Shown: positions 1 through 38,816 of the stretch, piece by piece
How the letters are laid out: each line of letters opens with the position of its first letter
How positions within the stretch are numbered: position 1 is the first letter of the stretch
IMG/VR virus record: IMGVR_UViG_2509276001_000001
DNA: 59,683 nt
Direction: 5' to 3' (one strand)
From: an uncultured virus (IMG/VR IMGVR_UViG_2509276001_000001)
Lineage: Duplodnaviria > Heunggongvirae > Uroviricota > Caudoviricetes
Translations under genes and position numbers: made by a program
Notes under the pieces: generated by a model
Databases searched by the model: none
Seen by the model: the letters and a program-made list of their open reading frames with translations, nothing else
Told to the model about the DNA's origin: nothing

Positions 1-46
1 GCCATCAGAATCTACCACGCCGTTTTGTTGCTTCGATTGAAGCGAG

Positions 47-118
47 TACCGCATAGGAGTTTCGATCTCCTTCCTGCTGCCTGAGAAGCAGCCGACCTAG
101 CCAGTAGTCGAATGCGGC
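47..118 (-). tRNA. tRNA-Glu(CUC), atypical T-loop
   Basis: Acceptor GCCGCAT/ATGCGGT; anticodon arm GCTGC-TT CTC AG-GCAGC; T-arm GGAG-ATCGAAA-CTCC. Confidence 0.8.
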
Positions 119-129
119 GTTCTTGAAAG

Positions 130-202
130 CGATGGCAACGGGAGTCGAACCCGCAGCGACTTGATAGACAATCAAGCTTCCTTCCCAGAGGAAATTGCCA
201 CC
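130..202 (-). tRNA. tRNA-Asp(GUC)
   Basis: Acceptor GGTGGCA/TGCCATC; CTTGA-TT GTC TA-TCAAG; GCGGG-TTCGACT-CCCGT. Confidence 0.85.
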
Positions 203-219
203 GAAAATGTTTGCACGAG

Positions 220-295
220 GGTGACCAACCGGAATTGAACCGGCGACAAACTCATTCACAGTGAGTCTCTGGAAACCAACACCAGATCTGGCCAC
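220..295 (-). tRNA. tRNA-His(GUG)
   Basis: Acceptor GTGGCCA/TGGTCAC with C discriminator; CTCA-CT GTG AA-TGAG; CCGG-TTCAATT-CCGG. Confidence 0.8.
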
Positions 296-297
296 AG

Positions 298-372
298 CAC
301 CGGAGACTGGAATCGAACCAATGAACTCCTCGTTCAGAGCGAGGTGCAGCGACCAACAACTGCTACTCCGGC
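298..372 (-). tRNA. tRNA-Gln(CUG)
   Basis: GCCGGAG/CTCCGGT; CCTCG-CT CTG AA-CGAGG; TTCGATT loop. Confidence 0.85.
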
Positions 373-393
373 GTTTGGTCTTCAATACATCAG

Positions 394-461
394 CACTCCG
401 TCCGGGAATTGAACCCGACCTGCGAGCTTCAAAGGCTCACGTCGCGACTACGCGCCGGAGA
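394..461 (-). tRNA. tRNA-Gln(UUG), degenerate with short D-arm
   Basis: TGAGC-CT TTG AA-GCTCG; CGGG-TTCAATT-CCCG; mismatched acceptor stem. Confidence 0.65.
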
Positions 462-480
462 GAGTTTTCACAATCAAAAG

Positions 481-552
481 AGTGTCCTGTGGGAGTCGAA
501 CCCACCTAGCCGGATTGGAAGTCCGGAACCTTTGCCGCTCGGCCAAGGACAC
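481..552 (-). tRNA. tRNA-Gly(UCC)
   Basis: GTGTCCT/AGGACAC; CCGGA-CT TCC AA-TCCGG; GTGGG-TTCGACT-CCCAC. Confidence 0.92.
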
Positions 553-562
553 GAAATATGCG

Positions 563-631
563 GAAGCTTGAAGGGCGAGGTGTGAAACGAAGCGATTTAT
601 TCCACACATCTCGCTTCACCCTTCAAACTTC
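563..631. repeat. Heptamer-based inverted repeat (hairpin) in a tRNA spacer
   Basis: GAAGCTT GAAGGGC GAGGTGT ... CACACAT CTCGCTT CACCCTT CAAACTTC; the arms are reverse-complementary. Confidence 0.7.
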
Positions 632-637
632 GTGAAG

Positions 638-709
638 CTCCGGCGGATGGACTCGAACCATCACTCGTCTCCTTAACAGGGAGCCGCCTTACCATTGGGC
701 CACACCGGA
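638..709 (-). tRNA. tRNA-Asn(GUU)
   Basis: TCCGGTG/CGCCGGA; CTCC-CT GTT AA-GGAG; GATGG-TTCGAGT-CCATC. Confidence 0.92.
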
Positions 710-717
710 TTCTGCAA

Positions 718-788
718 AGCGCCCAGTGGGAGTCGAACCCACACTTCCGCCATGGCAAGGCAGCAGGCTACCGCTACATCATGGGCGC
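718..788 (-). tRNA. tRNA-Gly(GCC)
   Basis: GCGCCCA/TGGGCGC; CTGCC-TT GCC AT-GGCGG; GTGGG-TTCGACT-CCCAC. Confidence 0.9.
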
Positions 789-808
789 AAAAATGCATCA
801 CTACCAAA

Positions 809-821
809 TTGTCAAAGATCA
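809..821 (-). promoter_or_regulatory. boxA-like antitermination motif
   Basis: TGATCTTTGACAA on the tRNA strand, close to rrn boxA TGCTCTTTAACA. Confidence 0.55.
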
Positions 822-842
822 ATAACGCCGAAGCGTCTTAAG

Positions 843-913
843 AGCACCGAGCCGGAATCGAACCCGCATCACCTCGTTACGACGGAGGATTCTTGCCGTT
901 AGACCATCAGTGC
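843..913 (-). tRNA. tRNA-Thr(CGU), degenerate
   Basis: GCACTGA/TCGGTGC; CCTCC-GT CGT AA-CGAGG (one mismatch); mismatch in T stem. Confidence 0.65.
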
Positions 914-933
914 TTGTTTCAAAATGTCTCAAG

Positions 934-952
934 TGGGATCGGTGAGAATCGA
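934..952 (-). pseudogene. 3' fragment of host tRNA-Lys(CUU) (att junction)
   Basis: TCGATTCTCACCGATCCCA completes the T-arm and acceptor of the 5' part at 12087-12147. Confidence 0.9.
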
Positions 953-1006
953 GGTTTACTACCAACGGTCCCCACTGGGTCTTTCCTTTTTCTGCCAAGT
1001 CGTAAA

Positions 1007-1078
1007 TGGGATTGCAGGGATTCGAACCCCGACCCGTCTGGTTAAGAGCCAGCGATGCTGCCGTAACACCTCAATCCC
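1007..1078 (-). tRNA. Element-borne intact tRNA-Lys(CUU)
   Basis: GGGATTG/CAATCCC-A; CTGG-CT CTT AA-CCAG; CGGGG-TTCGAAT-CCCTG. Confidence 0.92.
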
Positions 1079-1080
1079 AT

Positions 1081-1111
1081 AAAAAAAGCCCGACGTCTTG
1101 CGACATCGAGC
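1081..1111 (-). terminator. Attenuator-type intrinsic terminator before the element tRNA
   Basis: GCTCGATGTC-GCAA-GACGTCGGGC followed by T7. Confidence 0.75.
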
Positions 1112-1142
1112 GTTGAGGCTTGGACCAACAATGCAACAAATA

Positions 1143-1250
1143 TCACAAACGACGTGGATACACATCGAGCAGACTCAGATGGCCGGCGGATTCACCGCCT
1201 AAGCCGAGCATGCTCTGATTCGTATTTCGTTGTTCTTGTTGCAGTGTCAT
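1143..1250 (-). CDS. Putative 35-aa leader peptide (MTLQ...GG...VYPRRL)
   Basis: Short ORF directly upstream of the terminator; same motif pattern as the ORF at 12832-12948. Confidence 0.6.
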   Translation of the reverse strand: MTLQQEQRNTNQSMLGLGGESAGHLSLLDVYPRRL

Positions 1251-1621
1251 TGAATCGTCGAGTCGCAAAGTCGGTTGTTGATCGTTTTCGCCAACCACAC
1301 GCTGGCGACAGCAGATAAGAAGCCGAGAATCGCGAAAGGTTCGCGGATCATAAAAGAAAGATGCAAAAGAGCAGGCTTTTATTTCATCACTCGCAAAAAA
1401 AGACGCGGCTGCGTCGTGTACCCGCTGCTCGATCTGTGGGGTTTTACGGAGCACCACCCAAACACGCGTTACACGCTGCGACAACCGGCTTCGGTGCCGT
1501 CTCCTGTCGCATACACGAAGGTACTAACAACGCTGGGCTAGGTTGGCCAACCGAAAAGCGGATAGCTCCTCCGCCTGCCCTCAGCGTTTTCCATTGGAGC
1601 GTTTGGATTGGAGCACCAATC

Positions 1622-2197
1622 ATGCGAAAGCGACTATCTTTCTGGGACTTCAATAGTCCTGGCGATGCAACTCAATTTATTACCCAGGCAAATATCAAAT
1701 CTGGTGATCACATAGTTCTAGTGTGCCGAGTTTCTGGATGTGAACAAGGCAGAAGGAATAATCACCATGACCAGGAAGCAGCACTTCGAGAGCTGGTCAG
1801 CAATTGTGACGGGATCGTTGTTGGTGTTATTAGAATCGTCATCTCTGGATTCAACCCGTACTGGCTATCACGAGCAGTTGCACTAGCTGAAGAGCATGAC
1901 GCGAAAATCTTGGCAGAGTCGACGGATCGCCTTATTCGCCATCCTGCATACCATTCAAGCGAATGCCCCGATGCTCAGCCGTCAATCAGTCATTTGCGGG
2001 GCTTGAATGACTGGACAGAGGGTATTGAGTTACTAACGCTGCTTGACCCGAATGCGACGCCAAAAGAAGTTCGCAGCTATCAACGCAAACGCGGCCAACG
2101 AATGAAAGGCAACAAAGGCGGCAGACCACCGACGCCCGCGCACGTTGCTCTAAGGCGTGCAGTGTTGCAAAAACTACGCTCCACCCCATCAGGGTAG
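1622..2197 (+). CDS. Serine recombinase catalytic-domain protein
   Basis: VCRVS..EQ, ISG and ESTDRLIR resolvase motifs; no clear DNA-binding domain. Confidence 0.65.
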   Translation: MRKRLSFWDFNSPGDATQFITQANIKSGDHIVLVCRVSGCEQGRRNNHHDQEAALRELVSNCDGIVVGVIRIVISGFNPYWLSRAVALAEEHDAKILAESTDRLIRHPAYHSSECPDAQPSISHLRGLNDWTEGIELLTLLDPNATPKEVRSYQRKRGQRMKGNKGGRPPTPAHVALRRAVLQKLRSTPSG

Positions 2198-2400
2198 AAG
2201 GGTCGTCGATTTGGTGTGATCGCAAAACGATGATGGACTGGTAAATAACGAGGCGGCATGCCAACGGCGGCGCCCTAATCGGTTCGACAAAACCATTAGG
2301 TTGGAAGCCGGTACTTCACTCAGAATTCGCGAGGGAAAAGTTCTTGAAAACCTGTTATTGCCGCATGCTTCTACTTGGGATTGAAATCGAGGACACATGA

Positions 2401-3633
2401 CTAGGGGGCCAACTCTCGACGCGGGTGGTTCTCAAGTTTGGGGTTAGGAAATTCTGTAATGCAAATTCGTGCTTTCGAGTGAACTGCTGGATGTGGTGCT
2501 CTCACCAACAGAACGCGAGCGTCCGGTTCAAGGGGATTTGTTACTTTCATTGCTTTGTGCTTTTTTGCCAGTTCCACTAGCCGTAATTCTGCTGCACTCG
2601 CGTAATCAAATTTTTCCAAGCTCATTGCAATACTGCAATTAGTCGATTCGTAGAAATCAAGCAACTTCGATGGTGAAACGGGCACAGAATCAGGAGCCAT
2701 TAGCGTCTTGAGTCTTGTGAATTGCTTTATCGAGTCTAGATCGGAATCACGGAGCGGAATATCAAATAGAAGAATCGTTTGTAATCCACGTGCAAACGCG
2801 AAGTTCTCATTAAAGCTACCAGCTTCAAGCTCTAACTCTCGCAGCGTTAGGAATTGGATTTGCTCTATGTCGACTGCCCATGACAGATCGTAAAAGTCCT
2901 GTCTTTCCAATGAAAGGCTTCGGATCGTCGATAGCTCTCCAAGAATCTTCGCTTCCTCCATGCCTATATGGTTGTTTTTAAGCGTGAGGTTCTCGGGTGA
3001 AAGTGCAACCAGCAAGTCCATGTCAACCTGAGCTAGCCGCATCCCGTCTAAAACAATTTCTTCGATATTGCACTTGTCAAGAACAGCGAGGGCTTCGAGA
3101 GTGTCGCGAACGTATTGCCCCGATTCGTCGGAGCATTTGTAGGTGACCGCTGGCGGTTCCGCAGTGAAATCGACATCCACCGTTGAACGGTAGGCTTTGC
3201 TCTGCTTATTCGAGAGAGCGACGAGTACCTCATTCGTACTCAGTTTAACCTTGTACGAAGCCAGTTGCTTCTTGAGATCTTCGAGCACTACCTTGCCCTT
3301 ATCCGCGTTTTCTTTTGCAACCAAGACTTCTTTCTGGAACTTAGATTTTTCAGCGGAGAGTTCTAATCGCTTGGCATCCAACAAACCTGTTTTCCACGTC
3401 ACAAACAAAATCCCTAGACCGATAACGAGTGGGACTAGCTGCCCCAGCGAAATCCTCCAGCTAAACCATCTGTTGGCTTCCTCGATTTGCCTTATCTCAG
3501 CACGCAACTTCTCCTCCTGAAGTTCCCCCAAGCTAACCGACGCTAAGTTTTTGCCAGCTACTCCACCCTCGGTTGGTTCTTCGGCGACCGCATCGACTGT
3601 TGATTCGGGTTCTGCTTCTTCTTGATCTGACAT
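2401..3633 (-). CDS. Membrane-anchored coiled-coil/leucine-rich-repeat protein
   Basis: TM segment LVPLVIGLGILFVTW, coiled coil, then LxxLxL repeats. Confidence 0.65.
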   Translation of the reverse strand: MSDQEEAEPESTVDAVAEEPTEGGVAGKNLASVSLGELQEEKLRAEIRQIEEANRWFSWRISLGQLVPLVIGLGILFVTWKTGLLDAKRLELSAEKSKFQKEVLVAKENADKGKVVLEDLKKQLASYKVKLSTNEVLVALSNKQSKAYRSTVDVDFTAEPPAVTYKCSDESGQYVRDTLEALAVLDKCNIEEIVLDGMRLAQVDMDLLVALSPENLTLKNNHIGMEEAKILGELSTIRSLSLERQDFYDLSWAVDIEQIQFLTLRELELEAGSFNENFAFARGLQTILLFDIPLRDSDLDSIKQFTRLKTLMAPDSVPVSPSKLLDFYESTNCSIAMSLEKFDYASAAELRLVELAKKHKAMKVTNPLEPDARVLLVRAPHPAVHSKARICITEFPNPKLENHPRRELAP

Positions 3634-4070
3634 AAAAACACCTTAATTGTTGAACAAAACCTGCACCTTCATTCTTAGGCTTAATCGTGGCGGAGCAAGG
3701 GCGGGAAAAAGGGGAGCTAGTGAAGACAATTCGCCCTGCTGCAAATGAATGGGCATCGATTCAAGCAGGGCATCCACCTACCGGTATAAATCCTTAGAAC
3801 GCGAGGCGACGCGACCACCTTTCCCCAATCAAAATGGGCAAAACACAGTGATTCAACGCCAAAACCATCTTGAAAGTTTCTTCGCCTTGACTTTGGCCGA
3901 TTGGAGCCAGATACTGATGACATAATCCGTTGCCCTCTTCGTCGGAGAGCACTTGATTCAACCGACCCGCAGCCTTCGCCGGTTTGCGACAACCGAATCT
4001 CGACACCACGGGTTGCTTTCACGGCAATTCTACAAGGCTGATCCATGGCTAAAAAAAGCCGGGTTCAGGT

Positions 4071-4589
4071 GTGCGACGACGCACGCCTGTAACCTCACGT
4101 ACATCGAGTACGACGGTTTCGACTTCCAGTTCTACTGGAAGCACAGATTCCACTTCTAAACTCAAGCCCCGGCTAATCTCCAAGGATACTGCTGAGTCCT
4201 TGGAGATGCTCAGGCAGCACATCGTTCTTGCAGAGCAACACCTTTCGAACATGCCAGGTGCGTACGAACCACGAGCAAAAGTTGATGTTGGAGATCTGTT
4301 TAATGGGTTAGCTCTCATCTTAGATTCCCCCGACTACTTTATGGCACTGAGGGACGACTCGATTCAGATTGTGACCGCAACGTATCTTGGGAAAGAAGAC
4401 GAGTACGATGAACAAGATTCAAAGAGGATCTTAGACTATGGGACTCGGCAGAAGGTAGAGTTCGCGAAGAGAATCCCTGATCTGATTAGAGCCGCAAAAG
4501 AAGCGGAAGGTAATCTGAAATCAGAATCGGATAAAGCGATTACTGATATTCAAGCAGCAATCGACCAATCGAAGGAGTACTACGAATGA
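4071..4589 (+). CDS. Hypothetical protein (true start may be ATG 4045 across an A7 frameshift)
   Basis: 172-aa ORF with protein-like composition. Confidence 0.5.
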   Translation: MRRRTPVTSRTSSTTVSTSSSTGSTDSTSKLKPRLISKDTAESLEMLRQHIVLAEQHLSNMPGAYEPRAKVDVGDLFNGLALILDSPDYFMALRDDSIQIVTATYLGKEDEYDEQDSKRILDYGTRQKVEFAKRIPDLIRAAKEAEGNLKSESDKAITDIQAAIDQSKEYYE

Positions 4590-4726
4590 GTCGTAAACGT
4601 AACTCCAAGCCCAAGCGTCGCAAACGACCTGCCAAGCCAGAAGACCCAGACGTGAAAAAAGAGAAGTACAGGTTTTGGACATCCCTATTTAGTTTCGCCG
4701 GAGTCGTTGTGCGTCTGTTTCTATAA
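4586..4726 (+). CDS. Small basic protein with hydrophobic C-terminus (46 aa)
   Basis: ATGA overlap with upstream stop; MSRKRNSKPKRRKR...FWTSLFSFAGVVVRLFL. Confidence 0.45.
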   Translation: MSRKRNSKPKRRKRPAKPEDPDVKKEKYRFWTSLFSFAGVVVRLFL

Positions 4727-4867
4727 AGCACTTGCAAACTGCCGAGCGGGGACACGCACGCCGTGCCCCGCTGTCAATCGCACGTAACCACCAACGCTCT
4801 CCATACTCGCCCTCCACCGCTCGCACGCTACCAGCGAAGCGACAGGCCGCTCGTTCGCCAGCTAACG

Positions 4868-5116
4868 CTACCACTTGCTGCCGTCGGAGTTGAGTTTAGC
4901 AAGCCTCCGTACCATCTTCGCAGGATCTTCGCCGGTCACCCGCACGATCTCTACAAATTCGATAACGTCGAGTTTACGCTCACCGCGTTCGTATTTTGAA
5001 ACGAATGATTGAGGCCGTCCGAGATACTCGCCCATTTCTACCTGGGTGATGTCGGCAGCAACACGTGCATCGACAAGCATATCTCGCATCAGTTCGTATC
5101 TAACGTCGTCTTCCAT
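4868..5116 (-). CDS. XRE-family HTH regulator
   Basis: ITQVEMGEYLGRPQSFVSKYERGERKLDVIEF. Confidence 0.9.
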   Translation of the reverse strand: MEDDVRYELMRDMLVDARVAADITQVEMGEYLGRPQSFVSKYERGERKLDVIEFVEIVRVTGEDPAKMVRRLAKLNSDGSKW

Positions 5117-5150
5117 TGGTCGCAGATGTCCGAATCAGATGAGATGAAGA

Positions 5151-5212
5151 AACCCAACTCAGGATATCCACTCCTTCAAATATCCCAATACCGGTTTAAC
5201 CCAATATGGGAT
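5151..5212. promoter_or_regulatory. Three 15-bp pseudo-palindromic operator-like sites
   Basis: AACCCAACTCAGGAT, ATCCCAATACCGGTT and AACCCAATATGGGAT upstream of the XRE gene. Confidence 0.55.
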
Positions 5213-5429
5213 AAAAGATCCAAATAGTATCTCATTGAAAATAAATCCGAAAGTTTTAAGACGAGCGATCACAACATCTTATGAACCAAAACGATAAAAC
5301 AGCATCGCTAAACGCCCAAATTTAAAGAGGGCTAACACGATTATAGGACGTGGCACTTGTGTTTAATGCGTTCCGCTTGACTAGTTTTTGGCCACAGTCG
5401 ATTCAACACCGATTTTGGAGTAACAACAA

Positions 5430-5912
5430 ATGCAGAGAAACGAAACACTAGCCCGCGATAAGGAGGCCTGCCAGACAACGAAGGACATCACGTTGTCGCT
5501 TAGCATGAGCGTACCAAAGCGAGAAGCATTGCGAGTCCCAGCAAATCAAGAATTGCGAGTACACGCTCTAGTCCTACTGATCGACACCTTGCTTGAAAAT
5601 TCATCGGCCAAGGACGTGAAGCTGGAACGCACCAACGACAACTACAAAATCGATGACGACATGCCTCCGTTCCAAACAAAGTATTACTGGACAGCAAGCT
5701 ACCACGACGAGTGCCGTGCCAAGCGAGTCGGAGCAATTGCCTACGAGCAGTTTGCTGCACACGCTAGCGATGAAAAACTACTGGCCCCTGTTCTTGATGC
5801 TCTCTCCCATTCCGTGTGGTGCGATGAGGAAGTCTATCAGGGCGACGGTACTTGGTTGCAGTTCCCTCTAGACGAGAACAAGCCAGAGGAGCAGGCAAAC
5901 GTCTCCACCTGA
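5430..5912 (+). CDS. Hypothetical protein
   Basis: 160-aa ORF with GGAG RBS. Confidence 0.65.
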   Translation: MQRNETLARDKEACQTTKDITLSLSMSVPKREALRVPANQELRVHALVLLIDTLLENSSAKDVKLERTNDNYKIDDDMPPFQTKYYWTASYHDECRAKRVGAIAYEQFAAHASDEKLLAPVLDALSHSVWCDEEVYQGDGTWLQFPLDENKPEEQANVST

Positions 5913-6156
5913 TCGATCACCCAACCCAAGCATCACGAGCGATCAAAAGCCCAGACTGTAAAGTTTGGGGTGGTCGATCGAATCGGCTGTGATCGAGCGG
6001 TAAAGCCCGTGGACTGGGGCAACGGGTCATTTTCGATATGCGTAAACCGAATTGTGTACCCGGGCTTTACACCCCTCTTGAGAGGGGGTAGTGTTGGTGT
6101 GGGGTTGGTAGCAGCGTGTTACCAACCGACCACCACAACCACACGGAGCAAGAGAC

Positions 6157-6468
6157 ATGGCCGCCAAAAAGACCACCGCCGCGAAGAAAACAAACGCAAC
6201 GAAAACCACCGACACCAAAACGACCAAGAAGGAGCCCGCAGCAAAAGACAAGCTGGGTTGCCGCGTTGGATCACAGTCCGCAGCGATTAACGCGACGCTG
6301 ACCGCCAAAGCTAAAGACGTTGCCACGATCGCTGAGGCCTCAGGTTGCACTGCCGCCCGTGTGCGTAACCACTTGAGGCACCTGATGGCGAAAGAGCTGG
6401 TTTTCCAAGTCGACGATGGCTACACAACCAAGGCACCAGCCAAGCGTACCCGCAAAGCCGCAAGCTGA
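6157..6468 (+). CDS. Small Lys/Thr-rich winged-helix DNA-binding protein
   Basis: VATIAEASGCTAARVRNHLRHL helix-turn-helix. Confidence 0.7.
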   Translation: MAAKKTTAAKKTNATKTTDTKTTKKEPAAKDKLGCRVGSQSAAINATLTAKAKDVATIAEASGCTAARVRNHLRHLMAKELVFQVDDGYTTKAPAKRTRKAAS

Positions 6469-6649
6469 GCCGGTTTGCCGGGCGTGTAACGCTACCCAGT
6501 TAGCGAGCACGCCAAACGACACCCCAACGCCGCCAAACGATTTGCCGGCCCCTTACAAGCGATCGACCAACAGCCCTGCCTAACACGCGGGGCTGTTGTC
6601 GTTGATGGAGTACATGAGAAATCCCTTTATCCAAACAGGAACAACAACG

Positions 6650-7282
6650 ATGACCAAGAAAAAGAAGTACGTCGCCGTCTACATCCGCGTCAGCACGGTG
6701 GGACAGAACGAAGCAGGACAACGAAAGGAATTGGAACGCTGGGTCGACAACCACGGAATCGAGAACGTGCGTTGGTACGTCGACAAGGAATCCGGCGACA
6801 GCCTCGATCGACCAGCGTTCAAGAAAATGCAGAGAGCGATCTTCGATGGGAGGGTTAGCACGGTGGTTATTTGGAAGCTCGATCGACTCAGCCGCCAGCT
6901 ACGCGAAGGCATAGACACGATTTGCGATTGGTGTGACCAGGGCATTCGCATCGTAGCGGTAACACAGGAGATTGATTTCCACGGGACGGTCGGAAAGATC
7001 ATCGCATCAGTGCTGTTGGGCATTGGGCAGATGGAGCAAGAGACTAGGCGTGAACGCCAAGCAGTCGGAATCAAAGCCGCACTCGCTGAAGTGAAGGCAG
7101 GCAAACGCAAACCTTGGGGCGGTTCCAAACCGGGCACACGGAAGAAGCTGACCGCTGACAAGATCGAGATCATCCAAGACATGAAATCGAAGAACAAACC
7201 GATCGCCGCTATTGCCCGTGCTGTTGGTGTGTCGCGACCAACCATCTACAGCGTTCTAAATGAGCCCACGGCTCCGGTGTAA
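6650..7282 (+). CDS. Resolvase/invertase-type serine recombinase
   Basis: YIRVST..Q, ESG, DRP, WKLDRLSR; C-terminal HTH IARAVGVSRPTIY. Confidence 0.95.
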   Translation: MTKKKKYVAVYIRVSTVGQNEAGQRKELERWVDNHGIENVRWYVDKESGDSLDRPAFKKMQRAIFDGRVSTVVIWKLDRLSRQLREGIDTICDWCDQGIRIVAVTQEIDFHGTVGKIIASVLLGIGQMEQETRRERQAVGIKAALAEVKAGKRKPWGGSKPGTRKKLTADKIEIIQDMKSKNKPIAAIARAVGVSRPTIYSVLNEPTAPV

Positions 7283-7370
7283 AGAATCGCTCTCGACAGA
7301 TTTACAGAAGAGGGTAGTTTGCTTACCGCTTGCTCGCAGACACCAACCCAGATGGGAGGTAGATACACCG

Positions 7371-7736
7371 ATGGCAAAGCACAAAAAGAAGCCTGTTGAG
7401 ATCGCCAAAAAGTTCGTGCCCAAGTTCTGGGAGGACATTGACCAGCGTTGCTCCATCGTTCGCGAAGTGCGTACACGCTACGCAAACCTGATTGAACAAG
7501 CGGGTGCCGATAGCGTTCAAAAGACGATGCTCGCTCAGCGTGCCGTCTTTATCAACATCCGACTTGAGACGATGGAGTGCGAAGCAGCCCAGGGCGGTGC
7601 CTTCGATGAAGGCGTTTACACCCAGATGGTGAATACGCTGACGGGACTGCTGAAGTCGCTGGGCCTGAATCGACAACAGGCCGACGCAACCATGAACCTG
7701 AAAGCATACGTCAAGCACGCGGGAGCCAAGCAGTGA
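7371..7736 (+). CDS. Putative terminase small subunit
   Basis: Helical 121-aa ORF coupled (GTGA overlap) to terL; ...LLKSLGL motif. Confidence 0.55.
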   Translation: MAKHKKKPVEIAKKFVPKFWEDIDQRCSIVREVRTRYANLIEQAGADSVQKTMLAQRAVFINIRLETMECEAAQGGAFDEGVYTQMVNTLTGLLKSLGLNRQQADATMNLKAYVKHAGAKQ

Positions 7737-9169
7737 GCCGCATCAGCATCATCGACGCTTGCGAGGACGAGAACCTGTTCTTGCCATACCTTGGGAACGA
7801 CCTCAAGACATGGCGACGCTGGCTCGTAATGCTCCGAACTCTCTATGGCCTTCATCCCAGGAAATGGACATCGAAGGAACGCAAACTCATCAAGCATTGC
7901 ACTGGACGTGATGCCAGCACGCTTCCAACCGAAGGCTTCGCGACCAGTGTTTGCTTGACCGGCCGACGCTCAGGCAAGTCGAGAATAGCCGCAGTGATCG
8001 GTGCCTATGAAGCGGTCCTCGCTGGGCACGAATCGAAACTCTCGCCCGGCGAAACCGGCGTCGTCCCAATTATTTCGCCAACGAAACATCAAAGCCGCAT
8101 CGTCAAGAACTACCTGCGTGCCATCTTTGATGCGCCCCTACTTAGGAGCGAAGTCGCCGGGGAGACTCGCGAAGGGTTTGAGCTAAAGAACGGAACGCGA
8201 ATTGAGATCCTTGCTGGCGACTGGAGGACCATTCGAGGATTTACGCTCTTAGCGGCAGTAATTGATGAGGCATGCTTCTTTCAATACGAAGCTGATTCCA
8301 AAGTCCGCTCAGACACTGAACTTGTCAGGGCGATCCAACCATCGCTTGCAACAGTCGGCGGACGGCTGAGTTTGATTAGCAGCCCGTACGCCAAGAAGGG
8401 CTACTGCTACCAAGCCTGGAAAAAGAACTTCGGGAACGACACCGGGCGGACGCTCGTTTGGAACTGCTCAAGTCGGACGATGAATCCGACGCTGCCGCAG
8501 TCAGTTGTTGACGATGCAATGGCTGAAGATTTGCAGGCGGCCAAGTCAGAGTATCTAGGTGAGTTCCGCGATGATGTCGTTCAGTTCTTGGATCGTGCGT
8601 TGATCGAACAATACGTCATCCCACACCGCAGCGAACTGCAACCGCGACGCGACAGAGACTATTTCGCATTCGCCGACCTATCCGGTGGACGTGGCGACGA
8701 CGCTGCCTTGGCGATCGCACACCGCGACAGCCGAAAGCTGATCCTTGATTTCGTACGACGATGGCGACCACCATTCGACCCGCGACATGTTTGCGAAGAA
8801 ATGGTTGAGGAACTGAAGCGATTCAGCATTCGCCGCGTCAGGGGCGACAACTACGCGGCGGAATTTGTCGCCGGTGCATTTCGATCGAACGGCGTTCGCT
8901 ACACCAAATCAGAACTGCCCGCTTCGGGCCTTTACCTCGAATTGCTTCCGCGACTATGCAGCGGCGAAATTGAATTGCTCGACAACGAAACACTCATCGC
9001 ACAACTCGCTGGCCTGGAACGAAAGACCCGTTCAGGAGGCAAGGACAAAATCGATCACCCATCCGGCGGACACGACGACGTTGCCAATGCTGTAGCAGGC
9101 GTCTGCGTATCCGCATCCAAACAACGTCAAAGGGTTGGAGCTCCATTCCAACGAAAGGTAACGGCATGA
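7733..9169 (+). CDS. terL: Terminase large subunit
   Basis: Walker A GRRSGKS, Walker B AVIDEA, ISSP, RNase H-like ADLSGGRGD and HDDVANA. Confidence 0.88.
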   Translation: MSRISIIDACEDENLFLPYLGNDLKTWRRWLVMLRTLYGLHPRKWTSKERKLIKHCTGRDASTLPTEGFATSVCLTGRRSGKSRIAAVIGAYEAVLAGHESKLSPGETGVVPIISPTKHQSRIVKNYLRAIFDAPLLRSEVAGETREGFELKNGTRIEILAGDWRTIRGFTLLAAVIDEACFFQYEADSKVRSDTELVRAIQPSLATVGGRLSLISSPYAKKGYCYQAWKKNFGNDTGRTLVWNCSSRTMNPTLPQSVVDDAMAEDLQAAKSEYLGEFRDDVVQFLDRALIEQYVIPHRSELQPRRDRDYFAFADLSGGRGDDAALAIAHRDSRKLILDFVRRWRPPFDPRHVCEEMVEELKRFSIRRVRGDNYAAEFVAGAFRSNGVRYTKSELPASGLYLELLPRLCSGEIELLDNETLIAQLAGLERKTRSGGKDKIDHPSGGHDDVANAVAGVCVSASKQRQRVGAPFQRKVTA

Positions 9170-9651
9170 ACATTCTGTCAATTCAAAGCAACATCGACAA
9201 GTTTTTCGATGAACACGGCAAATACGTCACAACGGGAGCCAACGGAAGTTGGTTCCTATTCGAGGACGGTGCCATGTACGAGAACGTTCCCTCGCTCATG
9301 GGTTGGATGAAGGAGCCACCGGAAGATCCGTTGGAGCGATGGACATTGATCGCCCAATACCGCGAAATCCGACTTGCGAACTCGGTTGACGAGTTTGATA
9401 GGGAACACCGCCGCTTGGACAAGGACAACTACGCATGGCGAGATGCTGAAAAGAACTTCCTCCGCTTAGAAAAGCTCAAGGAGAAAGTGAAAAAGCAAAA
9501 GCGGTCGCTCGCAACGGCAACGCGGAAACGCAACAGACTCGACCCGAAGTGGATTTCGCCAGAAGAGCATCTCAAGCATGCCAAAGAACGAGATCGCAAC
9601 GAAGGACGAAAAGCAAGCTTCAAAAACAAACTTAAGAAATTCCAAGTCTAG
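9166..9651 (+). CDS. Hypothetical coiled-coil protein
   Basis: 161-aa ORF overlapping the terL stop. Confidence 0.65.
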   Translation: MNILSIQSNIDKFFDEHGKYVTTGANGSWFLFEDGAMYENVPSLMGWMKEPPEDPLERWTLIAQYREIRLANSVDEFDREHRRLDKDNYAWRDAEKNFLRLEKLKEKVKKQKRSLATATRKRNRLDPKWISPEEHLKHAKERDRNEGRKASFKNKLKKFQV

Positions 9652-9663
9652 GAGACATTAGAG

Positions 9664-10221
9664 ATGACCAGTATCCGAAGAATGACATTTGAGTCGCACG
9701 GCACTGTCGGCGTCGTTGAAGGGCCCTCGGCGGGCGTTGATCAGTTTCTACGCAACGCACACCCGAACGCGAATCGCGGCAAGTCAAAGTTTGTGAATGC
9801 GACAGACCAGCAACTTGTGAACAACGGTGGCGACACGGTGAAGGTAACGACTTATGAACCCGTTGCATCAAAGTCAGAGCCGCTCGGCACACCTTCAATC
9901 AACTCGCTGTTTGATGAGCCGCCAGTGGTGAGCGAATCGGTACTTCAACCGCTCGACTACCAAACGACCGTGGCAGCTCAAGTGCAGCCACCCACGAAGG
10001 TATCACGACCACCGCTCCGCATCGGTAATTCGAGTCCAGGTTTGCGGCTACCGACGATTAACGATCTGTTTGACAAGCCCGCTGAGACGCCCGGTAACGA
10101 GCGAGCACCCGCTAACTCGACAACCGAGCGGGGGCCGCAACACAACACGCGACGAGCGATGACAAAAGGCGGCGAGCCGCTTGGGTTGCCAACGCTCTTT
10201 GAGACAGGAGATCAGCCGTAA
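9664..10221 (+). CDS. Hypothetical Pro-rich protein with three short repeats
   Basis: GGAG RBS; EPLGTPSINSLFD / PGLRLPTINDLFD / EPLGLPTLFE. Confidence 0.6.
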   Translation: MTSIRRMTFESHGTVGVVEGPSAGVDQFLRNAHPNANRGKSKFVNATDQQLVNNGGDTVKVTTYEPVASKSEPLGTPSINSLFDEPPVVSESVLQPLDYQTTVAAQVQPPTKVSRPPLRIGNSSPGLRLPTINDLFDKPAETPGNERAPANSTTERGPQHNTRRAMTKGGEPLGLPTLFETGDQP

Positions 10222-10458
10222 GTGGAGACCCGGCACGTTGGGAACCGTGCCGGATTGAGGCGACTGCTGATGGATCGGCCCTTTGGGCATCCTTCAAGCG
10301 AGAAGTCGGCAGTCGTCTTTCTATTGACTAGAGATTTCAGTTTTTAATGTGGGTGGCACGGCTTCGGCGTAGCTACCAGAGTCGGGTTCATTTTCCTTTG
10401 ACCGATTGAACCGGCCACCCACACTTTTTCAAATCGGTTAAAGGAAGGTCAACGTCAG

Positions 10459-12113
10459 ATGACTGCTAAACGAAAACTTAAAAACGCTGTGCTTTACCTG
10501 CGGGCGAGCAGCAAGAAACAAGATACGTCGGTTGCCGAGCAGCGTGTTGCATTGGAGAAGTACGCCAAAGAGAAAGGCTATAAGATCGTCGATGAATATG
10601 TCGACGATGGAATCAGCGGGGATGACACTGAGAACCGCTCAGGCTTTCTGCAAATGAGAGAAGACGCTGCATCACATAGGTTCCACGTGATCTTGTGTTG
10701 GGATCAAGATCGATATGGTCGATTCGATTCAATTGACGCTGGCTATTACACAAAACCGATCCGTGACGCAGGTGTTTCGCTCGAAACAGCAAACGAAGGC
10801 TTGTGTGACTGGGAGGACAGCATTGGCCGATCGATGTACGGGTTGAAACAGGAAGGCAAGCATCAGTTCCTGCATGACCTAAGCCGGAACGTGACACGCG
10901 GAATCATCGAGTCCGCCAAGTCTGGTAGCTGGCATGGCAAAGCTCCCTTCGGCTACGAAATAGTTGGCGAGCGTAAACACAAACGTCTTGAAGTCGTCCC
11001 AGGGAAATCAGCGATCGTGCAACGCATCTTTCGTGAGTACGTCCAAGAAGGAAACTCGATGAATCAGATCGCAAAGCGACTGACCGCTGATGGCATACCC
11101 ACATCAACCGTAAAGAAGAAAAATGGGATTGCGGTTCTGTACGATTCATCTTGGAGAACCGAGCATACGTCGGAGATCGTGTTGCCAATAAACAGACGAG
11201 AGCGAAATACAATCACATCCAAGGCGAAGAAGTGGTCGCTGGCTCAAAGCAAGGCAAGAATGATCCCAAGGATTGGATCATCGTCGAAGGTACGCACGAA
11301 GCAATCATCGACCCCGAAACATTCGCCAAGGCACAGGCGGAACGGGCCAACGGCACAAAACGAAACAACCAGCACCCGCCCGAATCCAATCCCTACCTGT
11401 TTACCGGAGTGCTTCGCTGTGGCTCGTGCGGTGCAAACATGCACGGTGAGAAGCAAACGTCAAACGGTCGACGCTTTTACGAATGCAGCGAACAAAAGAA
11501 AGACCGAAATGCTTGCACTGGATCGAAGATTCCGCAGGACAAATTGATTGAAACCATCGTCGAAACGATTGACCAAGAGTTCGGAAGCAAATTGATGGGG
11601 CGGTTTTGCGGAACCAGACAGGGGTTTGATAGACGCCTCGACCAAGCTAGCGACTTGATTGCGAAGCTTGAGCGAATGTTGCTTCCACCCAAATCAGCGA
11701 AGGTGAATTTAGCGTCTCTGAAAAAGCAGATTGCGAATTTGGAGGGCAGAATAAAGACTGCTAGACGAAATCTTGCCGCGATCAATGATCCAAAAAACAT
11801 CCCTGCCATTGAGGATCAGATTCGCACCTGGGAATCAAATTGCGACGAGCTTCGGAAGAGTGTCACCAATCAACCGAATGAGAAAACAATCCGTGCTCGA
11901 GTGCGAGAGATTTTCCAAGCACTGGCCGAACTACAAACGCAGGATGAAGACTTGGTTCGTAGAGTCGCCAAACAAATCGACAAGATCGTCATACGCTGTG
12001 GTCGAAGCGGCAAGAGGGGGAACGGAATTCGCTATCACTTTCGATGCGGCGAAATTCACTTTAATCGAGTGGGGGCGGTTGGTAGTGAATCGAACTCACA
12101 TCGCTCGGATTAA
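10459..12113 (+). pseudogene. Large serine recombinase (integrase), frameshift near 11110
   Basis: YLRASS..Q, DDGISG, DQDRYGR, APFGY; second frame continues WDCGSVRFILENRAYVG, HEAII, Zn ribbon CGSC..C..C and coiled coil. Confidence 0.92.
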
Positions 12114-12147
12114 GAGTCCGATGCATTACCTTGTCTGCCACAATCCC
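12087..12147 (-). pseudogene. 5' part of split host tRNA-Lys(CUU)
   Basis: GGGATTG...TCGGA-CT CTT AA-TCCGA...GTGAG-TTCGATT; T stem and acceptor are not restored by element sequence. Confidence 0.9.
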
Positions 12148-12172
12148 ATGTGTCGTCGTTGTTTCGTTTCAG

Positions 12173-12245
12173 TCGGCGTGGCGGGAATTGAACCCGCGAC
12201 CGTCGCCTTATAAGGACGCCGCTCTCACCCCTGAGCTACACGCCG
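12173..12245 (-). tRNA. tRNA-Ile(UAU)
   Basis: CGGCGTG/CACGCCG; GCTC/GAGC D stem; CGTC-CT TAT AA-GGCG; GCGGG-TTCAATT-CCCGC. Confidence 0.85.
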
Positions 12246-12257
12246 ATGCGTAGCCAA

Positions 12258-12352
12258 TGGGGCCGAAGGGAGTTGAACCCTCACCTACACGACGACCAAC
12301 GCTGCGCGTCGGTGCCCGAAGTCCGTCATGCTGCCAGTTACACCACAGCCCC
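12258..12352 (-). pseudogene. tRNA gene (probably Lys) with a hairpin inserted in the anticodon loop
   Basis: GGGGCTG/CGGCCCC acceptor and intact T-arm; anticodon arm is 21 nt too long. Confidence 0.75.
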
Positions 12353-12428
12353 GATTTTCAGTCGCGGCTATGCGTTTCAATCGCAGTGCAGGCAGCATGT
12401 TGTTTTCCTTTCGTATCGTTGTCGTAAG

Positions 12429-12500
12429 TGGTAGCCCTGAGGATCGAACTCAGCGCGACCCGCGTATCAGGCGGATTTGGGCGACCAGCCCTCGACTACC
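12429..12500 (-). tRNA. tRNA-Ile(GAU), short D-loop
   Basis: GGTAGTC/GGCTACC; CCGC-CT GAT AC-GCGG; CTGAG-TTCGATC-CTCAG. Confidence 0.8.
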
Positions 12501-12517
12501 GTTGTCGTTTCAAAAAG

Positions 12518-12590
12518 TCGGACACCTCGGAGTCGAACCGAGACCCTCCTGGTCCCAAACCAGGCGTGCTTCCATCTGCACCTGTATCCG
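12518..12590 (-). tRNA. tRNA-Pro(UGG)
   Basis: CGGATAC/GTGTCCG-A; CCTGG-TT TGG GA-CCAGG. Confidence 0.9.
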
Positions 12591-12647
12591 ATGTTGTTCG
12601 TCGTCTTCGCCGCGGACGATTCCGTCGGCGCATATCTTCCTTGTCAG

Positions 12648-12719
12648 TGGGCCGGGAGGCGCTCGAATCCTCGTCTGCGGTTCTTCAGACCGCCGCTAGA
12701 CCGTCTCAGCTACCAGCCC
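12648..12719 (-). tRNA. tRNA-Phe(GAA), first gene of the array
   Basis: GGGCTGG/CCGGCCC; GCGGT-CT GAA GA-ACCGC. Confidence 0.85.
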
Positions 12720-12762
12720 AAGTTGGGTTCGTTGTTGGGGTTGCCCGTTCGATGCGGACACG

Positions 12763-12796
12763 AAAAAAGGCTCAGGTGTCTGCGTGACACCGAGCC
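12763..12796 (-). terminator. Attenuator-type terminator upstream of the tRNA array
   Basis: GGCTCGGTGTC-ACGCA-GACACCTGAGCC followed by T6. Confidence 0.8.
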
Positions 12797-12831
12797 TTCA
12801 TGAAGAAGTCGTTCGCTAATGAAAGCGAGTG

Positions 12832-12948
12832 TCACATCAGACGCGGATACGCCGGGGCATTATCTGTATTCAACGGTTGCCCGCCGAACGCATAGCCTTC
12901 GTGTATCTGTTCGAGTCGACTGGATTGAATATTCAATTGTAAAAACAT
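12832..12948 (-). CDS. Putative 38-aa leader peptide (MFLQ...GG...AYPRLM)
   Basis: Short ORF ending about 35 nt before the terminator; homologous pattern to 1143-1250. Confidence 0.6.
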   Translation of the reverse strand: MFLQLNIQSSRLEQIHEGYAFGGQPLNTDNAPAYPRLM

Positions 12949-13118
12949 CAGAAAGCTCGTTACTCGCTTGTCTATGAATGTGACTTGTGTGTTCGGATAG
13001 ATAGACGCTTTCGCATCACCAGGGTTCGCACGAAATTGTTTTTTCGCGAGAATGTTTGTGGGCGTGCTTCCCGACCACAACTGCTAAACCCCACACATCC
13101 GCAAAAGTACTCGATCGC

Positions 13119-13508
13119 ATGAACGAAATCAAATCTTTTCTCGCCGCCAAGACTTACGCTGTCGCCGGCGCATCGGCTCGCACCCACAAGTACGGATACA
13201 AAGTCTTCAAAGCCCTGCTGACCTCCGACCGCGAAACCTATCCGCTCAACCCGGTCACCGAAGAGATTGACGGGCACAAGGCATACCCGAAGATCGCCGA
13301 TCTGCCCGTCGCTGCCGAATCGCTGTCAATCATCACGCCACCCGAAGTCACTCGCCAAGTCGTGGCCGAAGCGATCGCAGCCGGGGTAAAGCACATCTGG
13401 ATGCAACCTGGAGCCGAAGACGCACAAGCCAGCGAATCTGCACGAGAAGCCGGTATCAACGTGATCGACGACGGCAGCTGCGTCCTTGTGCTGCTGGCGC
13501 TTGAGTAA
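13119..13508 (+). CDS. CoA-binding protein (YccU-like)
   Basis: AVAGAS...KYGYKV, YPLNP, IWMQPG motifs. Confidence 0.9.
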   Translation: MNEIKSFLAAKTYAVAGASARTHKYGYKVFKALLTSDRETYPLNPVTEEIDGHKAYPKIADLPVAAESLSIITPPEVTRQVVAEAIAAGVKHIWMQPGAEDAQASESAREAGINVIDDGSCVLVLLALE

Positions 13509-27700: not shown

Positions 27701-28294
27701 NNNNNNNNNNNNNNNNNNNNNNNNNNNNNNNNNNNNNNNNNNNNNNNNNNNNNNNNNNNNNNNNNNNNNNNNNNNNNNNNNNNNNNNNNNNNNNNNNNNN
27801 NNNNNNNNNNNNNNNNNNNNNNNNNNNNNNNNNNNNNNNNNNNNNNNNNNNNNNNNNNNNNNNNNNNNNNNNNNNNNNNNNNNNNNNNNNNNNNNNNNNN
27901 NNNNNNNNNNNNNNNNNNNNNNNNNNNNNNNNNNNNNNNNNNNNNNNNNNNNNNNNNNNNNNNNNNNNNNNNNNNNNNNNNNNNNNNNNNNNNNNNNNNN
28001 NNNNNNNNNNNNNNNNNNNNNNNNNNNNNNNNNNNNNNNNNNNNNNNNNNNNNNNNNNNNNNNNNNNNNNNNNNNNNNNNNNNNNNNNNNNNNNNNNNNN
28101 NNNNNNNNNNNNNNNNNNNNNNNNNNNNNNNNNNNNNNNNNNNNNNNNNNNNNNNNNNNNNNNNNNNNNNNNNNNNNNNNNNNNNNNNNNNNNNNNNNNN
28201 NNNNNNNNNNNNNNNNNNNNNNNNNNNNNNNNNNNNNNNNNNNNNNNNNNNNNNNNNNNNNNNNNNNNNNNNNNNNNNNNNNNNNNNNNNNNNN
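27701..28294. other. Assembly gap with overlapping flanks
   Basis: N run; 27612-27700 is repeated at 28295-28383. Confidence 0.95.
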
Positions 28295-38711: not shown

Positions 38712-38816
38712 ACCAAAGCCGAAACGCCAGCACGGAGGCTTGGCGTAGCGGCGGGTGGTACCCGTCGCCTGACGATGGCAGCCAACCACGACCCTTTCCC
38801 TTTCGGAGAACGAACG

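Follow-up and report, generated by a model that had tools for sequence, protein, structure and literature searches.

Putative leader-peptide attenuators at the heads of horizontally transferred tRNA arrays in Pirellulaceae

The DNA examined here is a 59,683-nucleotide (nt) stretch of an uncultured virus of the Caudoviricetes (IMG/VR record IMGVR_UViG_2509276001_000001), hereafter referred to at its full length as the window. It contains two short loci on the minus strand, each consisting of a short open reading frame (ORF) running from ATG to UGA, a strong terminator 31-34 nt further on, and then a transfer RNA (tRNA) gene; they are referred to as copy A (12,763 to 12,948) and copy B (1,081 to 1,250). 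It is proposed that both are classical ribosome-dependent leader-peptide attenuators heading a horizontally transferred long tRNA array, a reading to which we assign a probability of roughly 0.7. A first-pass annotation, made from the letters alone, had pointed to the two loci, and its coordinates, ORFs, hairpins with U-tracts and following tRNAs were all borne out to the base.

The two leader loci and their relatives

The elements of the two copies, numbered as regions 1 to 4 after the classical four-region attenuator model (PMC3082878), are as follows.

12832..12948, minus strand: leader ORF of copy A, with ATG at 12948-12946 and TGA at 12834-12832; 38 codons plus UGA, ending YPRLM, for a predicted peptide of 38 amino acids, MFLQLNIQSSRLEQIHEGYAFGGQPLNTDNAPAYPRLM
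12977..12984, minus strand: candidate region 1 of copy A, a box GUCACAUU in the 5' untranslated region (5' UTR), complementary to GAUGUGAC at 12838-12831
12869..12888, minus strand: mid-ORF hairpin P1 of copy A, UUCGGCGG-GCAA-CCGUUGAA
12828..12838, minus strand: region 2 of copy A, the 5' strand of the predicted antiterminator, i.e., the stop-codon region GAUGUGACACU, with its partner at 12791-12783
12763..12796, minus strand: terminator of copy A, with 5' arm 12796-12786 (region 3), loop, 3' arm 12780-12769 (region 4) and U6 at 12768-12763
13002..13027, minus strand: promoter-like motif of copy A, GAACC-N15-CGTCTA, resembling the -35 and -10 elements of extracytoplasmic function (ECF) sigma factors
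1143..1250, minus strand: leader ORF of copy B, with ATG at 1250-1248 and TGA at 1145-1143; 35 codons plus UGA, ending YPRRL, for a predicted peptide of 35 amino acids, MTLQQEQRNTNQSMLGLGGESAGHLSLLDVYPRRL
1250-1218, minus strand: region 1 of copy B, codons 1-11 of the ORF, in which UGCAACAA pairs with UUGUUGCA
1128..1155, minus strand: region 2 of copy B, the stop-codon region including UUGUGAUAUU at 1148-1139, which can partner either region 1 or 1107-1098
1081..1111, minus strand: terminator of copy B, with stem 1111-1088, GCAA loop and T7 at 1087-1081
1317..1342, minus strand: promoter-like motif of copy B, GAACC-N15-CTTCTT, with one change

The terminator of copy A folds with -21.6 kcal/mol (RNAfold, folded stretch 12799-12766); its 5' arm GCUCGGUGUC is conserved and its 3' arm is variable, with G-U pairs. 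A simple terminator scan misses it, its stem being bulged, and lists that of copy B, which has 10 pairs, six of them G-C, and folds with -17.3 kcal/mol (RNAfold). According to ARAGORN, a tRNA-Phe lies at 12719-12647, 43 nt 3' of the U-tract of copy A, and a tRNA-Lys(CUU) begins at 1079, 1 nt past the T-tract of copy B. The annotation had also reported that the bases around each stop codon can pair with the terminator, and both pairings exist, namely GUGACAC (12835-12829) with GUGUCAC (12790-12784) in copy A and UUGUGAUAU (1148-1140) with AUGUCGCAA (1106-1098) in copy B, the duplexes of stop region and terminator 5' arm having energies of -16.9 and -11.3 kcal/mol, respectively. The duplex of the 5'-UTR box of copy A with the stop region has -10.8 kcal/mol; in copy B, the 1:2 and 3:4 helices have -18.8 and -17.1 kcal/mol. 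At the DNA level, the two copies are only patchily alike, with conservation concentrated in two blocks, one formed by the last codons and the stop region and the other by the terminator 5' arm. The motif that they share, TATCCNCGTNNNNNNTGA, occurs twice in the window at an expectation of 0.03, and chance is excluded as the source of the resemblance.

Transcription of the leaders may start at an ECF-type promoter. The hallmarks of such promoters are CGTC in the -10 and GGAAC in the -35 element (sigma-E; PMC3397946). The motif of the leaders takes the form GAACC-N15-17-CGTCT(A/T), and a scan with the pattern GAAC[CT]-N14-18-[CGT][GT]TCT[ATC] found it in 51 of 76 leaders, 129-211 nt 5' of the stop codon, compared with 3 of 1138 control windows. 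The relatives of copy B at L059, L065, L067 and L096 (loci are numbered with L) have GAACC...CGTCT(A/T) at the matching place. From this motif, an ECF sigma factor would be expected to drive the tRNA array.

The distribution of the family was assessed with several searches. A 25-nt motif common to copies A and B was scanned against 596 Gb of sequence containing one genome per prokaryotic species, and was found at 26 loci in 20 assemblies, the titles of which all name Pirellulaceae, its genera, Pirellulales, Planctomycetaceae or Planctomycetota. All 26 loci, as well as the IMG/VR contig L016, are of the same type as copy A (type A). Among viral contigs, a 19-nt motif matched 31 stretches, of which L016 alone is a true homologue and 30 are chance matches. 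Type A leaders occur in Rhodopirellula, Aporhodopirellula, Novipirellula, Stieleria, Rubripirellula, Roseimaritima and Neorhodopirellula, with two to three copies in several genomes, and each is followed by a long array of up to 31 tRNAs within the 4 kb fetched. A recurrent order is Phe, Pro, Ile, Lys, Ile(UAU), Lys(CUU), Thr, Gly, Asn, Gly, Gln, Gln, His, Asp, Glu, Glu, Trp, Val, Leu, Ala and onward. The leader and array of type A are near-identical DNA across genera (L032-L057 compared with window positions 12640-13030), which indicates recent horizontal spread. For copy B, BLAST against 401 sampled Pirellulaceae genomes gave diverged relatives that head tRNA-Lys(CUU)-first arrays at 69% DNA identity; L059 and L060 retain the ORF at that identity.

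Two patterns were then applied to the same 401 genomes. Pattern 1, anchored on Tyr-Pro and the stop region and containing no terminator, matched 39 places in 32 genomes, with no control matches; three genomes were judged false, namely L093 and L095 (YPHRM) and L094 (YPRRM), which have neither terminator nor tRNA. Pattern 2, built from RNA elements only (stop region, gap, terminator arm), matched 51 places in 40 genomes, with 4 control matches; here six genomes were judged false (L101, L122, L135, L136, L137, L144), and L123 is a decayed copy. After removal of the false ones, we count approximately 59 of the 401 genomes as true carriers in the union of both patterns. In 401 genomes spread over the phylum, pattern 2 gave two matches, both apparently by chance, so that the leader sequence family was not found outside Pirellulaceae among the genomes searched.

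Pooling of all searches gave 106 candidate places in 83 distinct contexts, 77 of which have an in-frame ATG ORF of 32-49 codons. The leader family has dozens of diverged members and at least three architectures. The annotation's view that one architecture is conserved at the heads of tRNA arrays holds, as a same-strand tRNA lies within 400 nt of the U-tract in 70 of the 75 leaders with enough downstream sequence. The distance to this first tRNA has a median of 43 nt (at most 8 nt in 17 of the 70), the first tRNA is tRNA-Phe in 53 arrays, and the next 1.5 kb contain a median of 10 tRNAs; upstream, a same-strand tRNA was seen in merely 2 of 59 leaders. At L111 (G032:C29, oriented approximately 830-1560), two complete leader-attenuator modules stand in natural tandem: the first ends HPLRF and is followed by tRNA-Phe and tRNA-Glu, after which a second promoter and leader (YPLRL) head a Lys(CUU) array.

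Conservation of the reading frame and of the RNA pairings

A conserved ORF in homologous leaders, which the annotation had named as a check on its proposal, is present. Over the 33 codons that precede the UGA, its frame is open in 80 of the 83 contexts, whereas the two alternative frames are open in 9 and 15; when the count is confined to 31 lineages that are less than 75% similar, the corresponding numbers are 28, 6 and 9. The three exceptions are L106 (a 32-codon ORF), the decayed copy L123 and one chance match. In type A, where similarity across genera is too high for an argument based on substitutions, the frame is kept in 26 of 27 copies, and the 27th, L055, has lost its 5' half. Length variants of type A all differ by whole codons, e.g., MFLQLNIQSS versus MLSKTQSS at the N-terminus, GGQPLN versus GAPVHSDSPLN, GASNQYCALN and GGPSNHCCPLN in mid-ORF, and NTDNAPA versus NDKAPA later on. 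The frame upstream of the type A ATG is unconserved, and the reading frame can be taken to begin at this ATG because a 1-nt indel just 5' of it shifts the frames of relatives. Taken together, the comparative evidence that the leader ORF is translated is strong.

The peptide itself is conserved less than had been supposed. Between types, the peptides are nearly wholly diverged, and the YPR sequence, regarded by the annotation as the conserved core, did not hold up as such: of the 42 leaders that the RNA-only pattern yielded, 4 have YP at -5/-4, 40 have R at -2 (Arg codons CGC 26, CGT 8, CGA 6) and 31 have L at -1, so that the commonest C-terminus is R-L-stop, and type A has R-L-M instead. YPR is a subfamily trait. 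The conserved peptide motifs overlie paired RNA, LWSS coinciding with region 1, PAN with the 3' strand of P1 and R-L-stop with region 2; because conserved codons sit within RNA pairing, selection at the peptide level is neither shown nor excluded. A nascent-peptide arrest motif conserved independently of the RNA was not found in the 42 leaders.

When folded singly with RNAfold, the ORF of a leader forms a rod in which early codons pair with the stop codon and approximately 12 bases beyond it (in L098, GUGGUCGAGUCUCAC pairs with GUGACACUCGGCCAC), and the conserved hairpin P1 is the tip of this rod. Covariation was assessed on an alignment of 36 leaders (A2), consisting of 35 of the 36 non-A representatives with R-x C-termini and copy A of the window; the near-duplicate L127, six representatives with other C-termini and 26 other A-type representatives were excluded. 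On A2, RNAalifold recovers exactly two helices, region 1 with region 2 and the terminator, with compensatory change in 6 of 19 pairs. The structure consisting of the 1:2 helix, rod, P1 and terminator is here named the OFF structure. In it, 81.0% of the alignment cells pair, compared with 33-43% when the partners are slid, and 64 cells have two-sided changes compared with 33.2 in shuffles, none of 500 shuffles reaching 64. Compensatory changes across leaders, another check set by the annotation, are thus found in the 1:2 helix (two-sided in 7 of 14 pairs) and in P1 (6 of 7 pairs). The distal part of P1 is swapped in relatives for self-complementary inserts (CUGUC/GACAG, CAGUA/UACUG, CAGCA/UGCUG, CUCGC/GCGAG). 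Two other helices were considered and rejected, i.e., a YPR hairpin CGAUGUG-UAUC-CACGUCG in copy B, which has merely a 3-bp counterpart in copy A, and a copy A helix AGUCG:CGACU, which has one-side variants without a matching change on the other side.

In the predicted antiterminator, region 2 is matched with the 5' arm and loop of the terminator; 89.2% of the cells of A2 pair in this helix, compared with 30-52% when slid, and its pairs are mostly invariant. The terminator 5' arm has its best partner at a site overlapping the stop codon in 65 of 77 leaders, which is partly built into pattern 2. The true hits of pattern 1 all have a complementary arm though that pattern omits the terminator. 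Furthermore, unrelated sequence has taken the place of the terminator in L038 and L039 (Rhodopirellula maiorica), approximately 30-80 nt after the leader stop; immediately 5' of the stem now present lies a new stretch, CACAUCAGGC, that pairs with the stop-codon sequence GUCUGAUGUG. The re-created pairing and the arms of the pattern 1 hits provide independent support for the antiterminator.

A predicted ribosome-dependent switch and its alternatives

In the proposed mechanism, transcription would start at the ECF-like promoter (GAACC-N16-CGTCTA) and run through an ORF of 33-45 codons, the RNA of which folds as a rod. The UGA lies within region 2, and region 2 would pair with either region 1 (early ORF codons in copy B and most relatives, the 5'-UTR box plus inner rod helices in copy A) or region 3, the 5' arm and loop of the terminator. 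Three situations would then follow: I) without a ribosome, 1:2 would form, then the 3:4 terminator, and transcription would stop before the first tRNA; II) a ribosome at the stop codon would cover region 2, so that 3:4 forms again; and III) a ribosome held in approximately the first dozen codons, and this alone, would free region 2 to form the 2:3 antiterminator. The polymerase would then proceed into the tRNA genes, with RNase P removing the leader from the first of them. The inducer may be slow or stalled elongation resulting from damaged or depleted tRNAs, or translation inhibitors. In copy A, the inner helices that zip the outer helix shut would presumably be removed once a ribosome occupies the 5' part of the rod, over half its length.

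The logic of the annotation was partly retained in this scheme. Its placement of the stop codon in the antiterminator strand, with the predicted masking by a ribosome that reaches the stop, stands. Its suggestion that failed translation also gives read-through is not supported, as most members have an anti-antiterminator, from which termination is predicted when translation is absent and read-through only upon an early stall.

Folding of nascent transcripts, with the RNA ending before the terminator 3' arm and a 28-nt ribosome footprint masked codon by codon, is consistent with this scheme for the majority of the non-A leaders. By a hand count of the scan output, 25 of the 42 non-A leaders have the textbook pattern, with the antiterminator missing without a ribosome, present with the ribosomal P site at codons 1 to approximately 12, and missing later; six are unclear, copy B included. 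Among nine A-type leaders, three have a default antiterminator and six, copy A among them, hardly any, and the nascent copy A transcript folded without its 5' UTR forms the helix of region 2 with 12791-12783.

Several observations weigh against the proposed attenuator. In the remaining 11 of the 42 non-A leaders, the antiterminator forms without a ribosome and is lost within 5-6 codons of the stop. In the ribosome-mask scan, it is rare in copy A and almost never forms in copy B. Full-length RNA has the terminator at every ribosome position in four of six folded leaders, copy A included, and copy B and L096 are without a clear state at many positions; with the terminator dominating at equilibrium in this way, any switch must be kinetic, and of a kinetic switch such an outcome is expected. 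Covariation in the antiterminator is weak, with two-sided change in 4 of 11 pairs and 80 of 500 shuffles reaching the changed-cell count, and the ascertainment by pattern 2 partly presupposes the 2:3 complementarity. On 28 A-type leaders, RNAalifold pairs the 5'-UTR box with the stop region, and the box is invariant, without covariation; type A leaders are approximately 90% or more identical across genera, so that their conservation reflects recent transfer as much as selection. Shine-Dalgarno-like sequences are weak. Six metatranscriptome runs match approximately a quarter of the words searched, and contigs from four of them span the leader and continue across the terminator into tRNA-Phe (e.g., 12715-12921 and 12624-12802), but contigs also reach 13029-13036, past the presumed start, and given possible DNA carry-over they carry no verdict on transcription, strand, level, ends or regulation.

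Also on this side of the balance, the leader sequence does not indicate what is sensed. The leaders contain no run of any one codon, and their codon adaptation is ordinary, copy A standing at the 14th and copy B at the 30th percentile of host-gene windows. They use 15-16 different amino acids (family mean 16.7, compared with approximately 15 in host windows of the same length, i.e., about one standard deviation above). The idea of a codon-matched leader was rejected on account of this ordinary adaptation and the small excess in diversity. Since codon runs are missing, adaptation is ordinary and amino-acid use is broad, the leader sequence points to a read-out of general elongation rather than of one amino acid. 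Two codons that host genes in the window seldom use each stand once in the type A leader, namely a conserved AUA and a UUA. By our own reading, the first 12 codons after Met in copy B and its relatives frequently encode Thr, Gln, Asn, Lys, His and Glu, the amino acids carried by the first tRNAs of the copy B array; this match is not counted as evidence because the same codons form region 1.

The alternative that best survives, although we regard it as unlikely, is a three-element switch without an effective anti-antiterminator, in which the antiterminator would be the default, only a ribosome at or near the stop would permit termination, and stalled or absent translation alike would switch the array on. 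The 11 non-A and three of nine A-type leaders with a default antiterminator that is lost only some 5-6 codons from the stop fit this alternative. So does type A, whose candidate region 1 is a 5'-UTR element that a ribosome footprint does not cover and that is weak compared with the 2:3 duplex (-10.8 versus -16.9 kcal/mol); copy A itself may equally work in this way. For the family at large, the alternative is opposed by the 1:2 helix, which is the sole long-range helix recovered by RNAalifold and varies on both sides in half of its 14 pairs, by the greater strength of 1:2 over the antiterminator in copy B (-18.8 versus -11.3 kcal/mol), and by the 25 of 42 non-A leaders that require a ribosome on early codons for the antiterminator to form.

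It is improbable that the switch works through RNA alone, with a structured leader binding a protein, small RNA, tRNA or ligand, and with an incidental ORF. Nearly all conserved peptide features (LWSS, PAN, RL-stop) fall on paired RNA and the entire ORF folds as a rod, as this would have it, but it would not account for a frame that is open in 80 of 83 contexts, a conserved ATG, indels that are all in frame, or a stop codon invariably within region 2, and neither T-box nor any other Rfam family matches.

Least probable of all is an unregulated stop, i.e., a stand-alone ORF or small RNA gene with its own terminator, or a hairpin insulating a silent decaying array, with the tRNAs expressed separately or not at all, since, for all that planctomycete tRNA clusters with tRNA-Ile(UAU) have been called degenerate and possibly dispensable (PMC4807772), that L055, L063 and L123 are truncated, and that a tRNA within 400 nt is missing from 5 of 75 leaders, the U-tract lies at most 8 nt from the tRNA in 17 leaders and 1 nt from it in copy B, leaving no room for a separate promoter there, the conserved pairing of 5' arm and stop region, re-created in L038 and L039, would be pointless, and the peptides are nearly wholly diverged between types.

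The ribosome-dependent attenuator, to which the comparison of leaders gives good support, thus remains the preferred reading, and with it the array would probably be regulated by its leader. A wider scheme can be sketched as a tentative and rather doubtful extension, in which the leader would act as a two-input stress gate for a mobile kit of spare tRNAs: an ECF sigma factor would open the promoter, and the attenuator would pass the polymerase only during early stalls in a test ORF that samples most amino acids, so that the cell or the mobile element deploys a complete replacement set of tRNAs under anticodon nucleases, tRNA-depleting defences or ribosome antibiotics. Elements that integrate into arrays would bring their own attenuator to re-head the severed tRNAs, as copy B does in the window.

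The arrays, the inserted element and related systems

The genes around the two loci are as follows (by ARAGORN, Rfam, Pfam and PHROGs).

12080..12719, minus strand: array part 1 (ARAGORN, Rfam), with Phe(GAA), Pro(UGG), Ile(GAU), a 95-nt tRNA-like gene, Ile(UAU) and an altered Lys(CUU)
46..1079, minus strand: array part 2 (ARAGORN), with Lys(CUU), Thr, Gly, Asn, Gly, Gln, Gln, His, Asp and Glu, running off the window
1361..12113: inserted mobile element of approximately 11 kb that splits the array (Pfam, PHROGs, Rfam)
1531-1600: int-alpA RNA, inside the insertion (Rfam)
6596-7282: serine recombinase (second resolvase), inside the insertion (Pfam/PHROGs)
7733-9169: terminase large subunit, inside the insertion (Pfam/PHROGs)
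10459-12113: serine recombinase adjoining the tRNA-Lys junction, in two apparent frames, 10459-11547 and 11151-12113

The array has the features of a long tRNA array, being dense, with up to 31 tRNAs per 4 kb in relatives, and shared between genera. In relatives, Ile(UAU) is directly followed by Lys(CUU). In the window, the resident tRNA-Lys(CUU) at 12147-12080 is altered at its 3' end, diverging past the T-arm near 12085 when aligned with L035, and the other end of the insertion contains the promoter, leader and attenuator of copy B together with a tRNA-Lys(CUU) unlike the resident one. Positions 952-1 share 96-97% identity with A-type arrays in other genera (L035, L044 and L052), and positions 1254-1001 are related to B-type modules only. 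The two loci are therefore not diverged duplicates; copy B belongs to a different lineage of the family, arrived with the 11-kb insertion and has become the head of the tRNAs that this insertion cut off.

Some further observations were made in the window. ARAGORN assigns a 4-base anticodon (tcgg) to the 95-nt tRNA-like gene at 12258-12352 (minus strand), which occupies the place of the tRNA-Lys(UUU) of relatives; L048 and L052 show this peculiarity too, and it may reflect an insertion in the gene or a decayed gene. The tRNA-Ile(UAU) lies at 12172-12245 (minus strand), and is likewise found in the arrays of relatives. The overlapping frames of the junction recombinase may reflect a frameshift. 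A tRNA T-arm-like fragment at 10405-10427 (direct-repeat family D2), just 5' of the recombinase that begins at 10459, may be what is left of an attachment site. At 38717-38787 (plus strand), Rfam gives a match to the type II hammerhead ribozyme that scores just above the gathering threshold (37.6 against 37 bits), and positions 27701-28294 are a run of 594 N.

Long tRNA arrays are present in many phyla, spread horizontally and are mostly silent, and the one studied case, in Anabaena, uses a repressor. If the proposed attenuator is real, it would link failing translation directly to more tRNA without a protein regulator, extend textbook attenuation from amino-acid supply to the tRNA pool, and imply that the spare tRNAs are probably made only as ribosomes falter. 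Cultivable carriers, including Rhodopirellula europaea 6C, Stieleria marina K23_9 and Novipirellula species, make it directly testable. The annotation knew of no such control described for tRNA arrays, and in keeping with this, no such publication was found in the full-text literature searched, most subscription journals lying outside the search. Older work has dealt with the tRNA-Phe genes of E. coli.

Leader ORFs that sense translation inhibitors are known from the erm and cat leaders and from attenuators of the bmrCD and vmlR type. Another is toiL, a ribosome-stalling leader ORF upstream of topAI-yjhQ in E. coli that senses translation inhibitors (PMC12121999). As in these systems, impaired elongation on a short upstream ORF would here lead to downstream read-through; however, they control resistance or toxin-antitoxin genes, several of them via arrest peptides, whereas the leaders of this study head a tRNA set and have no established arrest motif.

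The spread of long tRNA arrays by transfer, Planctomycetes included, has been reported (PMC8421152; PMC4758250). The trn operon of Anabaena sp. PCC 7120 is a horizontally acquired long tRNA array that is normally silent and is induced by translational stress (PMC8421152, PMC10272220), which gives the proposed signal a precedent. Its control differs from the leader attenuator proposed here, as it is exerted by a ribbon-helix-helix repressor, TrcR, on direct repeats over the -10 box (PMC8421152). The words 'leader', 'terminator' and 'attenuat-' are absent from PMC8421152, and the TrcR direct repeats TGTWNWWNWNNWGTANYNWA gave no match in the window with up to one mismatch. T-boxes resemble the leaders of this study in being terminator/antiterminator leaders that read the state of the tRNA pool; unlike them, they bind uncharged tRNA, need no ORF and regulate aminoacyl-tRNA synthetase or amino-acid genes. 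In Rfam, no family besides tRNA and int-alpA reaches its gathering score at positions 900-13150, and no family, T-box included, overlaps either leader even at E values up to 1.

The closest likeness is to the enterobacterial attenuators trpL, hisL, pheL, thrL and ilvL, with which the proposed elements share a short leader ORF, the 1:2, 2:3 and 3:4 pairings, a region 1 that in copy B and most relatives would lie under early codons, a stop codon near or inside region 2, and a terminator just before the regulated genes. They differ from these in that their targets are 10 to more than 30 tRNA genes rather than enzymes and that there is no run of cognate codons; the ORF is longer (32-49 codons), folds as a rod and contains the conserved hairpin P1, the promoter motif resembles those of ECF sigma factors, and the element travels with a mobile array. 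The kind of mechanism is a known one, and what would be new is its gating of a mobile tRNA set, together with the rod-shaped ORF and the ECF-like promoter.

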